Assembly: GCA_040143965.1 (NCBI GenBank)
Contig: JASJQH010000049.1
Coordinates: 1-38,204 of the forward strand
DNA: 38,204 bases
Source of the DNA: Basidiobolus ranarum
Taxonomy: Eukaryota
Reading direction: 5' to 3'
Shown here: positions 1,716 through 6,803 of the stretch, piece after piece
Numbering within the stretch: the first letter of the stretch is position 1
Layout of the letters: each line of letters starts with the position of its first letter
Translations under genes and position numbers: made by a program
Notes under the pieces: generated by a model
What the model saw: only the letters and a program-made list of their open reading frames with translations
Databases searched by the model: none
Told to the model about the DNA's origin: nothing

Positions 1716-2902
1716 ATGGTGCAAACAAGCGATATGCCTTTGCTTCGGCTAAAGGGAGAGCTTCGACAGGTAGATGTAGAGAATGAGATAGAAGCAATTC
1801 ACGAATGGCTAAAAAAATATTCTCATCGTTTACCAATATTATTGGGTTTAGTAAGACGAGATATAGCTAAGCAGTCCAGACCAGTGTATTTCACTACCTT
1901 CAAAACCTTTGACCATCTTGAAAGAGAATTGGGTCTTGTGGTCAGAATAAGTAAACAAGTAAACTTTGTAGTCACTTCAGAGATAACTCTTAGACAAGCG
2001 CCTAGAACCGAAACTGGCTTTTTGTTGGCTGAGCATCAAAGGTTATTTGACGAGAGTGTGAAGTTATTGGAAAAGACTTTTGAAACTTTAAACTTAAAGG
2101 TGGGAGGTAAGTGTGGTCTCTTTGGTTAGTCGCCTTAGCTCTTTTGTATTGAAGGGATTTCTCTTGCAGAGGAGGTTTTTATCGGAGGTTTAGACTGTAT
2201 GTGGAAGCCCACCGTGTGGAAATATACCACTCCGATATTCGATACTCCCTGTAACCTGTACTCCCTCTCGTGGAAAAGTTTCCTTGAAAAGTATGGAAAC
2301 CTTAGTGACGATAATCTCAATTTTGACCGGGAGAAATATGAACTTGGTCAGGTCTTGAGCACTGACTTGGATTTGGTAAAAGGAGGAACTTTTGTTTTCG
2401 GTGGAATTATTATTAATCATTTGTATTGTTCTCTGTTGCTTTCTATTGCTGTAGGTACTTGAGCATAATAAAATCAAGTATGACCAAGAATATTTACTGA
2501 GCTGCCTCGAGTTCTCCCGGTGTTTGAGATCCAAGGAAACTGGTACTCTAGTTGCGTGGTCATTGACTCATGACAATTGTAGGTAACCGGAATGAACATC
2601 AGATCACTTTCAACCTCTAACTAGACCTCTCTTTGGCAGACTCTATCTCTTCTCTTCACGCACTCCCATCTACACGTCGACAGGGTCTGGCCACCGTAGT
2701 ATTAACTTCGTGGCTACATGGACTTTTGCAATATTATCGAGAGAACTTCGATCCTGATACAGTGTCCATAGAAAATAGAATATTTCATTCGACTATGGAA
2801 GTGTGGAATGAAGTTTCGGTTAATTTCTTTACTAGATATGGCTTTCAGCCACTTAGCATTGTCACCTGGACAATGGTTTCGGGGCGTGCATCCCAGGAGT
2901 AG
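1716..2902 (+). CDS. GNAT-family (FR47-like) N-acyltransferase, 4 exons, ~327 aa
   Basis: Exons 1716-2106, 2170-2375, 2455-2578 and 2640-2902 join in frame across GT-AG introns. The C-terminus LVAWSLTHDNYSISSLHALPSTRRQGLATVVL...NEVSVNFFTRYGF carries GNAT motif A (R-R-Q-G-L-A) and motif B (N..S..FF...GF). Confidence 0.8.
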
Positions 2903-3073: not shown

Positions 3074-4216
3074 TCATTTGGTATATTTGAATAAAAGCAA
3101 CGTGATGACCGCACCTATACCTACACCACTACCAAGAACCTGCCAAGACTTCCAATTATTCTCAACTTGCCATTTCTCCTTTTCCTCTTCAATATGGTGA
3201 ATTAACTGATTTCTCAACTCCACCATCTCAACCTTCCATTGATCCACACTGGCTTGCAGTAACACCCACTTTACTTTCTCTTTGTTGGCTTCTTTGCTCA
3301 TCTTATCCGCCAACATGGACATTTCTTTCTCTAGATTTTGAGTGAGAGACATTTGATGGCTATTCAACGTTTCGTCCAGATCCATCTGAAAGTTCACATT
3401 GTGATCCTGTAAGTTGAGTGTCAATTCCTGATGGAAACGTGTTTGTTGTTCGTACAAGCGAGCCTGAAAATCATGGATAAGAATTTGACGCTCTTCCTCG
3501 AGACGTCGGCGGAGTATACGATCGATTTCTTCGGAATTTAGTTCTTTTAGAGATGGAGGCAGTGTATGACTACGGGGTGTATGACTAGCAATTTTCTCAT
3601 TGAGCACCTGTTTGTCAAAGAATAGCTGATTTGGTGTTGGTGAAGTAACGTAAGATAGACCGCTCTCTTGTTTCTCGTAACTGCTTGGTTTGTCGCTCCT
3701 GAGCTGAGGTCTAGGGGATGGCGGGGATCCGTAAGGTATTGGCTCTTCATAAAGCACTGTGGTATCGGGTTCCGATGGACTAGAAACGGAGCCTCGATCA
3801 GAGATCATATCCGAAGGTTCAGTGGAAGGCACAGTTTGAGATCTATTTTTCGCAGTAACTAGAAGGAAGTGTTAGTGAAAATAGATTAAATGCAAATGAC
3901 AGTTAATAAGTTTACCTCTTCGTTTTTTCTCTATCTCAAGAGCATCAATTAAGGTACGACTCCATCTTGGATTGATTGAGGTCATCTTGAAATCGTCCAA
4001 TTTAAGTTTGACAAATTTTTTCCCATCTGTATGATTTTTACTAAGAAATTCGTTGATTTGCTTGGCGCCATCCGGGGGTAATAATGAGACGCCGTTAACA
4101 AAATGTCGGATATCTTTGGCAGACCATTTCACCATCGGTGCTGGGCAGGTCGGCCACTTTCCCTCGGTTATGCTGGGGTTGTGGGCCTCGTCTCGATACG
4201 TTGTGGTTTTTATCAT
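3074..4216 (-). CDS. Hypothetical protein: N-terminal SAM-like domain, S/P-rich linker, coiled coil, C-terminal tail anchor; 2 exons, ~361 aa
   Basis: Exons 4216-3916 and 3858-3074 join in frame (intron GTAAAC...CTAAC...TTCTAG). The N-terminus KWSAKDIRHFV...FLSKNHTDGKKFVKLKLDDFKMTSI fits the SAM pattern. It has an E/Q/L-rich heptad region and ends WQVLGSGVGIGAVITLLLFKYTK. TATATAAA lies ~40 bp upstream of the ATG. Confidence 0.75.
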
Positions 4217-4589: not shown

Positions 4590-4674
4590 ACAAGCCTAGA
4601 CTTACTTTGTTACTCTAATTACTCCACAAGCTAAGACTTACTTTGTTACTCTAATTACTCCACAAGCTAAGACT
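4590..4674. repeat. 36-bp tandem repeat, ~2.4 copies
   Basis: ACAAGC(CT/TA)AGACTTACTTTGTTACTCTAATTACTCC at 4590-4625 and 4626-4661, with a partial copy at 4662-4674. Confidence 0.9.
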
Positions 4675-4698: not shown

Positions 4699-4800
4699 CT
4701 AGGCGATATATAAACCACAGCGGACTTGTTAAGCTTAACGTTTGACTAGGCTATATATAAATCACTGCGGACTTGTTAACTAAGCGATATATAAACCACA
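4699..4800 (+). repeat. Three copies of a ~34-bp unit containing ATATATAAA
   Basis: CTAGGCGATATATAAACCACAGCGGACTTGTTAA (4699-4732), CTAGGCTATATATAAATCACTGCGGACTTGTTAA (4746-4779) and CTAAGCGATATATAAACCACA (4780-4800). Confidence 0.85.
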
Positions 4801-5001
4801 ACCGCTAGTCTAACTAGCTCATAGTGAGGTTTCAAGTCAGAGTTTGACAGTTTTGTGGCGCTTCCAACCAAAAAGAAACACTCAAACTAATTACGGTGTT
4901 TCAGGTGTGCCACACAAACTGAGAAACAGTACATAAAATATCGGATCGTATCGTTGAGGAAATCCACTTTCCTTTCGTTAACACCTCCTATTAGCGTGAT
5001 C

Positions 5002-5469
5002 ATGATTAAGGCTACACAAATCCATTATGAACATCATCACTTCAAATCTCTCGATTCAGTTCGTGTGCCTAAAACCCATTTATTTAGCAACGCCGAACTC
5101 GAAGCATTTGGGTTGGCAACGGAATTTACCAGTATAGATACGCTACACACCCCTGCTACTCCTGAAAAGGCTGTCCTCCTTGAACGGATTCTGCCACCAG
5201 AGCACTTTGGCCAATCGATAACTGAGGTGGCATCGGATTTGCCTCTACCAGAGAAGTCTCTTTGTTACTTCTCCATCAACAAAGATAGTCGTACACTCAT
5301 CTGGCCGTTGGATAGTGTTATCAGGGAAACGAACCTTGAGGATGCAAGAAGGAAGATGAGAATGGTCCCCAGTTTTGAGCACATGTTGGTTAACGGGTTC
5401 GTTAGTGAAAATGGTCAACGGGAGATGACTGTCACGTTTTCCATTACTCCGCCCATTGTTAGGTCCTGA
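5002..5469 (+). CDS. Small hypothetical protein A (155 aa) with a C-terminal domain shared with 6462-6803
   Basis: Intronless ORF from the first ATG (5002). C-terminus RETNLEDARRKMRMVPSFEHMLVNGFVSENGQREMTVTFSITPPIVRS is homologous to the neighbouring ORF, which supports both being coding. Confidence 0.8.
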   Translation: MIKATQIHYEHHHFKSLDSVRVPKTHLFSNAELEAFGLATEFTSIDTLHTPATPEKAVLLERILPPEHFGQSITEVASDLPLPEKSLCYFSINKDSRTLIWPLDSVIRETNLEDARRKMRMVPSFEHMLVNGFVSENGQREMTVTFSITPPIVRS

Positions 5470-6461
5470 CACCTGGGCTCATCTTTAATAATAGTATACG
5501 ACTCTGCTTTAACCGTTAACCCTATGCATTGCTAGACAGAAAAAATATCTAGATTTCATTCAATAAATGAGTATATTAATGAACTAATTTAGCCGCAAAT
5601 GCGAGATTTCTTGATTCGGTTGTCGGTGGCACTAAATTTTTCTATTTCAGTTTATATTCTCTATGCTATATATCTCTCACTTGTATGTGCTTCCACAAGT
5701 ATCATGTATGTTAGAGCTTTGCGATGTACCGAGCACTTAGCTACCAATTGTCACTTTTCCAGTGACGATGGAGGGTAGAAAGGTAAAGGTGTTGCTTCTT
5801 CTGTAAGCTATGAGTTATGGCTACGTTTCTGAGGTGATTTCAACGCCTACAGTTAATATGGATGGTCTAATACATTATTGGAATATACTTAGGGTTAGTA
5901 AGCCAAGTCTACCCCATATTAATACTTACTAACACCTCTCGTCAATGTAAAGTCAAGGTTCAGCATTCCAGAGACCATCTATTTAAGAAATTCTTCATCA
6001 GCTAAAACGCCATACATCACCGATCCAACTTCAATTGCCCGGTAAAAGCACTTTCCTTCTTCACTTTATGATAATTCCAGATCACTTGAAAGTACCGCAA
6101 ATCAACACTCGAATAAGTATCGGAAAAATGAGGATCTAGATGATCTATCTTACCAGTGTCGATAGTGAGGTCATCTTGCATTTTTCAAAGCAATCCACAT
6201 TCCCCGGTGGGTTTCGGCACTAGATACTCCGCATGTTTGTTGGCTATAATGGCTGTGGGTGCTCTATGGTTATAATGGCTGTTTATTGATTCGTTATGGA
6301 ACAAGACTGAACATTCTATATAGGAAGTGGATAAATATTTGCAACATGAAAATTTTACATCTAAGAAGAACATAGTGAGTATACAACAAAATAGTGAAAA
6401 GTGTAGACAATCTTTGTAAATACAGTGGTTCAGAACTCCAACCATTCAGCTCAGCTCAGCT

Positions 6462-6803
6462 TCAACTATCAGTGTAGTCTCGTGCTAAGATAGGAGTCAA
6501 TGAGAACCGGACAGTAGGCTCACGATATCCAGTCTTCACATCAACCAAAAATCCATTCTCTATCATATCATCGAAGTCATAGACTGATTTGAGTTTCTTC
6601 AAGGCCAGGAGCAGCTCATTAGTCCCTCTACGTTCCAACTCTTCCTGCTCCCGAGCACGTCTCTCGGCGCGAAGATTTTTGAACGTTGCTTTATGGGCTA
6701 GCTTACGTAGATGCGTAGTAAAACTAGTTGTGGAGGAGTTGTTACGCAAAGTTGGTGCTGGAACTAACGCTGAGGTATGGGCTGGTGATGAGGATGGAAA
6801 CAT
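6462..6803 (-). CDS. Small hypothetical protein B (113 aa), paralog of 5002-5469
   Basis: Intronless ORF from ATG 6803. C-terminus RGTNELLLALKKLKSVYDFDDMIENGFLVDVKTGYREPTVRFSLTPILARDYTDS. A TATAAG lies ~90 bp upstream. Confidence 0.8.
   Translation of the reverse strand: MFPSSSPAHTSALVPAPTLRNNSSTTSFTTHLRKLAHKATFKNLRAERRAREQEELERRGTNELLLALKKLKSVYDFDDMIENGFLVDVKTGYREPTVRFSLTPILARDYTDS

Follow-up and report, generated by a model that had tools for sequence, protein, structure and literature searches.

The window analysed here is a stretch of 38,204 nucleotides from the fungus Basidiobolus ranarum (GenBank assembly GCA_040143965.1, contig JASJQH010000049.1, positions 1 to 38,204 of the forward strand), in which two small genes, referred to as A and B, face each other with their stop codons about 1 kb apart (Table 1). 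An earlier note, made from the letters of this DNA, had described them as intronless convergent genes that share an unrecognised C-terminal domain of about 50 residues, and both are indeed single, uninterrupted open reading frames (ORFs). The window also contains EF3, mitochondrial L5, bHLH, and protein-kinase exons, which mark it as fungal, and a protein deposited under B. ranarum is 100% identical to the product of another contig of this genome. Neither protein has a hydrophobic segment (the maximum Kyte-Doolittle value over 19 residues is 0.65 for A and 0.41 for B; no dedicated signal-peptide predictor was run), and searches of Pfam with A and B returned no family at E ≤ 1.

The similarity between the two C-termini has been confirmed in several ways. 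When the alignment in the earlier note was recomputed it gave 22 identities in 50 columns, and the best local alignment under BLOSUM62 contains 18 identities in 42 columns with a score of 81, a value reached by none of 20,000 shuffles of B (with BLOSUM50, one shuffle of 20,000 reaches the score). A pairwise phmmer comparison of A with B gives E = 2.3e-8, and among 670 six-frame segments of the window the C-terminal tails of A and B are mutual best partners, scoring 81 against at most 37. With default settings, on the other hand, a two-sequence BLASTP comparison of A and B gives no alignment, and one is seen only with a word size of 2 and composition statistics off. The N-termini of the two proteins, which the note had regarded as unrelated, show no similarity to each other, with 3434 of 5000 shuffles scoring equally high. 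Over the 40 codons of the module that can be compared between A and B, the proportion of nonsynonymous differences (pN) is 0.38 and that of synonymous differences (pS) 0.81. The proposal of an old duplication is supported.

Structure of the conserved module

The conserved region resolves into a bipartite core, in which a helix of the form F-[DE]-[DE]-Φ-Φ (Φ, hydrophobic residue) is followed by a linker of variable length and the segment T-Φ-x-Φ-[ST]-L-T-P-x-Φ. In A and B, which represent a long-loop form, an extra basic helix and a GF hairpin are added to this core. A set of 73 long-form sequences was assembled using a selection rule that included the terminal T-P; the first T of the strand, which the rule did not demand, is present in 73 of 73, and F-x6-G-[FY] is found in 72. 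A and B both have this element, with T-Φ-x-Φ-[ST]-[LIM]-T-P after it close to the C-terminus. The loop between GF and this T ranges from 3 to 31 residues, and the distance from the motif to the stop codon is 4-20 residues in all 31 long-loop ORFs counted.

An AlphaFold model of residues 49-112 of B, based on a 47-sequence alignment, has a mean predicted local distance difference test score (pLDDT) of 83.9 and a predicted template modelling score (pTM) of 0.50. It consists, in order, of a long helix, a short helix that starts from the invariant F, a hairpin after GF, an extended and unpaired T...P segment, and a last short helix. For full-length A, blocks up to residue 110 have pLDDT values of 43-60 and those beyond it 87-93, and the elements of the module are as in B. 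These models agree with the suggestion that a helix-plus-strand module is carried on unrelated tails; the docking role that had been suggested along with it is one that we infer. A Foldseek search of the PDB with the B module gave no matches at E ≤ 10. With VIA-align, the best Z for the B module over 48,161 chains is 2.9 and the full A model has no match at Z ≥ 2. Because the power of such searches is low for a model of 64 residues and pTM 0.50, these results do not imply a novel fold. Matches to PDB sequences were at chance level (an AsnC-type regulator at E 0.27, and myosin-actinin chimeras at E > 1) and were set aside.

Copies of the motif in the genome

There are at least 48 copies of the motif in this Basidiobolus genome, comprising 32 of the long-loop and 16 of a short-loop form described below, and this number is a lower bound. 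Searches of the genome with single proteins and a profile run against 7,127 ORFs from the fetched loci identified 31 ORFs that bear the long-loop module, one of which is a fragment at a contig edge, and in a control with reversed ORFs there were no matches at E 0.5. The 32nd long-loop copy was added by a separate search, and an extra weak profile match (E 0.18) was dropped. Further divergent queries of the genome added nothing: three gave no new locus and one no match at all. Pfam has nothing above its cut-off for 18 long-form modules and 16 full proteins, and the idea of an undescribed family, with no match in Pfam or among PDB sequences, is therefore supported. The idea that A and B together constitute a system is not, since at least 46 further copies exist, A and B do not come out as sisters in a weakly resolved tree, and they belong to a family in which neighbouring pairs are habitual.

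Short-loop form and larger carriers

A motif of uncharacterised fungal proteins to which the earlier note loosely likened the module, 'FD.LI....T...SLTP', has turned out to be a real relative, which occurs in this genome as a short-loop subtype. It covers about 20 residues with the pattern 'FD.L.....T.K.[ST]LTP' and shares with A and B the two core blocks and the terminal helix, but it lacks both the basic helix and the GF hairpin. A DNA pattern for the strand was matched at 62 places in the genome compared with 38 in a control, and a sister pattern, built around a pyrimidine-centred codon, did not rise above background (39 versus 48). Known members account for 28 of the 62 places. From the 34 others, two with a stop inside the match and one that repeats another match were left out, and among the 31 examined, 13, chosen by eye, lack GF and have a box resembling F-[DE]-[DE]-Φ-Φ a short distance upstream; the box is found in none of the remaining 18. 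Two further short-loop copies were found later and confirmed, and with the copy in C10 (below) the total is 16.

A profile-profile comparison relates the short to the long form with a probability of 96.6 and E = 6e-10, and when the short-form profile was run on the 7,127 ORFs it ranked 26 long-form ORFs first. In four of four pairs of short-form copies, pN is 0.02-0.16 compared with a pS of 0.59-0.95. None of 13 short-form modules scores above the Pfam cut-off. One PDB sequence match of the short form, to formate dehydrogenase (E 0.026), was judged to be a coincidence.

Two of the short-loop copies, in C393 and C1561, are located on exons of larger genes that start with a domain of about 200 residues. 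A third gene of this type, C10, was found by means of this domain and not by the DNA pattern, and it has a variant of the motif on the matching exon. In the large carriers the motif occupies its own exon and is followed by an intron. The N-terminal exon of about 200 residues in C393, C1561, and C10 has no match in Pfam or among PDB sequences. On C1561, a small long-loop gene lies divergently upstream of the large carrier.

Table 1. Positions of genes A and B, their conserved elements, and the larger genes that carry the motif. Positions for A and B are those of the window; those of the carriers are positions within their loci.
Feature	Position	Strand	Description	Basis
Gene A	5002..5469	+	Intronless, 155 aa; predicted disorder in residues 1-109, conserved module in 110-155	ORF, AlphaFold, orthologue ORX94617.1
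Module of A	5323..5466	+	Residues 108-155; basic helix (110-121), second helix (125-131), GF with a short hairpin, extended strand, last helix (151-154)	
Core motif of A, first half	5374..5400	+	F125 to G132-F133; F and G invariant in alignment A4	
Core motif of A, second half	5428..5451	+	T143-P150, T-Φ-x-Φ-S-I-T-P; T143, T149, and P150 invariant in 61 aligned sequences	
Gene B	6462..6803	-	Intronless, 113 aa; tail rich in Ser/Thr/Pro, then basic; module at the C-terminus	ORF, orthologue ORX94615.1
Basic stretch in tail of B	6657..6710	-	Residues 32-49; kept in orthologue, weakly in paralogue C347(-)	
Module of B	6480..6629	-	Residues 59-108	AlphaFold model, orthologue comparison
Core motif of B, first half	6549..6575	-	F77-F85	
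Core motif of B, second half	6492..6515	-	T97-P104; extended, unpaired in monomer model	
Multi-exon carrier C393	L126:891-1499		~200-aa N-terminal domain, downstream short-loop exon	
Multi-exon carrier C1561	L131:1826-2428		~200-aa N-terminal domain, downstream short-loop exon	
Multi-exon carrier C10	L151:1042-1704		~200-aa N-terminal domain, downstream short-loop exon	

Selection and gene arrangement

Both genes are conserved, each having an orthologue in Basidiobolus meristosporus (accessions in Table 1). Between A and its orthologue, 36 of 48 residues in the module and 55 of 99 in the tail are identical, and the corresponding values for B are 39 of 54 and 30 of 54. The tails had been described as variable; each is, in fact, about 55% identical to that of its own orthologue, and this description has been corrected accordingly. 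The two accessions are two apart and both belong to a contig 134,045 bases long, an indication that the A-B pair has been kept, apparently adjacent, in B. meristosporus. In the 16 best-scoring pairs of paralogues, pN within the module is lower than pS in 16 of 16 (0.08 versus 0.77, for example), and by this comparison of codons the long-loop module is under purifying selection. Tails of paralogues are likewise constrained, to a lesser degree than the module.

Copies of the motif are often close to one another. Among 45 copies, 20 fall into 10 pairs on the same contig, with five convergent, three divergent, and two tandem, and two copies found later contribute two more tandem pairs. One convergent pair, at C2567:1-84 and 674-1348, is a recent inverted duplication in which the 28 residues that remain at the contig edge are 96% identical. 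Some loci of the family are segmental duplicates of one another, and the flanks of other members are dissimilar. A weakly supported tree built on 55 columns places A and B each with their own orthologue and not together. Taken together, the same-contig pairs, the inverted copy, the duplicates, and the tree indicate that the convergent layout of A and B reflects local duplication. In Neoconidiobolus, too, two members with consecutive accessions share a contig. The neighbours of A and B in the window show no synteny with other loci of the family.

Relatives in other fungi

A profile search of 1.84 billion representative sequences gave 59 matches at E ≤ 0.001, of which 15 are from this genome, 42 are from elsewhere, and two (P0021 and P0028) were removed as repeat-protein artefacts. 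The source label of P0054, 'DNA polymerase II large subunit', was rejected as ill-fitting for a protein of 121 residues. Thirty of the matches were looked up and 22 could be assigned to a named organism, all annotated as hypothetical or uncharacterised: B. meristosporus (six), Entomophthora (four), Neoconidiobolus (four), Conidiobolus (two), Massospora (two), and B. ranarum, Syncephalis, Thamnocephalis, and Calcarisporiella (one each). These relatives span Entomophthorales, Zoopagales, and one fungus of the Mucoromycota; with this long-form profile, none of the 22 is from Dikarya. Examples from early-diverging fungi are the hypothetical proteins of Conidiobolus coronatus (KXN67100.1), Entomophthora muscae (KAJ9080582.1), Thamnocephalis (RKP07547.1), Syncephalis (KAI8058399.1), and Calcarisporiella (KAL1922608.1), which have the same long-loop C-terminal module on unrelated tails and carry no family name or function. 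The two proteins from Zoopagales are 537-562 residues long; a proposed match between the 'HLFSNAEL' block of A and an upstream block in these long proteins was not borne out.

In the ESM Atlas, the nearest clusters are hypothetical proteins of Ascomycota and Basidiomycota with values of 0.77-0.82, below the bar of 0.9; two leads from this source, 'YBR071W-like' (0.77) and a cluster in which 40% of members bear TCO89 (0.80), are likewise below it. Similar proteins may exist in Dikarya under a histone-fold-like label. Word-index searches for homologues, which are insensitive, gave none among proteins of 334-2000 residues, six matches in another search, and the query alone in a further one. None of 141 pattern matches in metagenome scans was confirmed, and four others were chance matches in bacterial-looking DNA. 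No published description of the family was found in the literature covered, which was mostly that openly accessible, and a search by accession and locus tag in supplements of PMC11105155 (three files) and PMC8778642 (one file) found no family member. PMC8778642 deals with carbohydrate-active enzymes (CAZymes), peptidases, and transporters and, in the parts consulted, names none of six family accessions tried.

Tails of the family members

The pattern [RK][RK]x[ST] is enriched in the tails: it occurs 25 times in 31 tails from this genome compared with 11.1 expected (one of 1000 shuffles) and 34 times in 42 external tails compared with 18.7 expected (two of 1000). In about 10 of 30 long-form members from this genome there is a Cys near a plausible start, a count made by eye with no background comparison; the feature is absent from A. 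A short hydrophobic N-terminal segment containing Cys, as in C7316, C6976, C7633, C7215, C2567, C7894, C807, and C3420, could be a signal for lipidation or membrane binding. A subfamily consisting of C7898 and C6936 (L006:1480-2235 and L008:1129-1656), P0007, and P0014 has a 'KR[HYF]G[RQ][IV]F' block twice in the tail, and the tail of C7898 includes a stretch that we take to resemble an RVxF-like site followed by hydrophobic residues. Comparison of the tail of B with that of C347(-) gives a score that is reached by two of 400 shuffles, C347(-) being the best among about 29 comparisons.

Other features of the window

Upstream of gene A there is a 36-nt tandem duplication at 4590-4661, and the region 4699-4813 contains three 34-nt repeats with a TATATAAA box in each. 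The neighbouring 'SAM-like' ORF (3872-4216) and an ORF for a coiled coil with a hydrophobic C-terminal end (3074-3808), both on the minus strand, are probably one gene: an in-frame GT-AG intron of 57 nt fits at 3915-3859 and joins them, and at the paralogous loci C7190 and C8258 both parts are present in the same order. The SAM label itself comes from a weak similarity (E 0.16) to 1sxe, a structure of ERG. A link of A and B to this SAM-like gene was considered and rejected, since this neighbour probably forms the first exon of a longer gene and no gene with the motif is present in the scanned flanks of its two paralogues. Closer to the contig end, ~1-660 and 950-1240 are remnants, in opposite orientations, of a repeat that is also seen where many other contigs end. 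Presumably the open frame at 3-305 represents the end of a Ty1/copia-type polyprotein. An ORF of 137 residues at 1716-2129 (+) has no Pfam match and is followed by an unexplained open frame at 2139-2462.

Interpretation

The bipartite C-terminal motif is the sole part that the proteins of this family share. An enzyme or a self-standing fold would require a core larger than this one and less open to insertions, so that we infer folding on a conserved globular partner. We consider it slightly better than an even bet that A and B are regulatory proteins, small, cytoplasmic, and disordered over most of their length, with a C-terminal docking motif for a common partner placed on variable regulatory tails. 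In such an arrangement, the T-Φ-x-Φ-S/T-L segment would be added as a β-strand to a sheet of the partner, with the flanking helices packed beside it and the last of them capped by T-P, and the divergent tails would set the place and timing for each paralogue, through sites for basophilic kinases and, in some members, a Cys-containing N-terminus. The small proteins could then act as targeting subunits, or as competitors for a site that is also used by the larger multi-exon proteins. An extension of this proposal, which we put forward tentatively, is that of a fungus-wide docking code, in which one conserved hub would recognise the helix-strand-helix motif in a few large multi-exon genes and more than 40 small intronless ones, the products serving as combinatorial targeting subunits or competitors.

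Several observations weigh against the docking proposal. The enriched tail pattern [RK][RK]x[ST] is one of six tried on related sequences that are not independent; it is absent from A and occurs once in B, at the edge of the module, so that regulation through the tails would apply at the level of the family. The pTM of just 0.50 makes the packing of the module elements uncertain, and a strand that is unpaired in the monomer model is equally compatible with self-association. The link between the long and short forms is partly circular, because 13 of the short copies were found using the strand pattern and the box was picked by eye, and two of these 13 do not fit the short form's own regular expression; independent support comes from the exon in C10 and from the lack of the box in the 18 other pattern matches. 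Finally, an A replaces the P in the C10 copy and two other copies alter the S/T position, and the invariance of the motif is therefore not absolute.

The alternative that best accounts for the same data, although we regard it as doubtful, is that the motif is an element for self-association, in which the strands of two chains pair and the helices pack together. This would give combinatorial homodimers and heterodimers, including A with B, and the small proteins would behave as microProtein-like dominant negatives of the large ones. A confident local structure together with a low pTM and an unpaired strand would be explained in this way, as would the presence of small and large carriers in one genome, which are divergent neighbours on C1561. 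On the other hand, the polar residues that are invariant in very divergent copies (first T, S/T, and second T) suggest a fixed external surface more than a self-interface that co-evolves, and the long helix and hairpin are missing from the short form.

The earlier note had suggested that the terminal S/T-P is a possible phosphosite, and it is conceivable, if unlikely, that L-T-P serves as a phospho-switch or phosphodegron, recognised by a proline-directed kinase together with an adaptor that binds phosphorylated sites, such as the Cdc4- or Pin1-type readers. The T-P is nearly invariant and is exposed at the C-terminus. Support for the suggestion is nonetheless weak. The T-P opens the last predicted helix, and S/T-P at the start of a helix is a typical N-cap; on the predicted structure, it is more likely to be a helix cap than a phosphosite. 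The full context for cyclin-dependent kinases (CDK), [ST]-P-x-[KR], is present at 6 of 73 terminal T-P sites, which leaves room for other proline-directed kinases, and tails show no enrichment of S/T-P (37 compared with 33.0 expected in this genome, and 67 compared with 67.6 in external ones). Furthermore, a phospho-switch leaves the invariant F, G, and first T unexplained, as well as the T-A of the C10 copy.

A further alternative concerns docking sites for phosphatases. Calcineurin PxIxIT sites bind by strand addition, and the RVxF pattern of PP1 is [RK]-x(0,1)-[VI]-x-[FW]. That the motif is a degenerate form of either one, making the family phosphatase-targeting proteins, appears very unlikely. 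The hexamer of B fits the PxIxIT consensus and a Φ-x-Φ-S/T register is found across the family, but the consensus is matched by 15 of 74 long-form and none of 13 short-form hexamers, and A does not fit. External tails show a mild enrichment of RVxF-like words (11 compared with 4.6 expected, 15 of 1000 shuffles), those from this genome do not (3 compared with 3.1), and RVxF is present in one of 73 strands. In both cases, the residues most conserved in the family (first T, L-T-P, and the F upstream) differ from those on which the phosphatase motifs depend. Least credible of all is that the genes are non-functional, as chance ORFs or remnants of repeats or transposons: although this contig end has transposon-like remnants common to many contigs, A and B have orthologues in another species, pN is far below pS, flanks of members are dissimilar except in segmental duplicates, and matched modules have no in-frame stops, so that this explanation is largely refuted by the data on selection.

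The motif may nevertheless work like PxIxIT and RVxF docking sites without belonging to either type. The plant OVATE and VQ families consist of small proteins, many of them intronless, in which a single conserved terminal module is combined with tails that vary; they resemble the present family in architecture and lineage-specific expansion, and neither was seen in the Pfam scans. The PxIxIT site, for which the parts consulted of PMC6506691 give the consensus [PG]xΦxΦζ and those of PMC5328617 the example of Rga2, similarly places a strand of alternating Φ-x-Φ-polar type within a disordered protein and is a model for strand binding, but it has no counterpart of the family's invariant T, L-T-P, or upstream helix, and the P or G of its first position is present in just 15 of 74 long-form and none of 13 short-form hexamers. 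The regulatory subunits of PP1, in the same parts of PMC6506691, offer an analogy of organisation, with many unrelated disordered proteins using one short site on a common hub; in this family, the aromatic position is F in just 41 of 73 sequences.

Significance

Two genes that appeared to be orphans now belong to a family that can be defined. Sets of small disordered proteins that have a docking motif in common are familiar, and the value of the finding is limited until the partner is known. The motif is present in at least 48 selected copies and in at least two fungal phyla, and has no name in Pfam, which points to an unmapped binding site on a conserved fungal protein. With a core of only about 20-45 residues to be explained, the identity of that partner could annotate dozens of 'hypothetical proteins' together.
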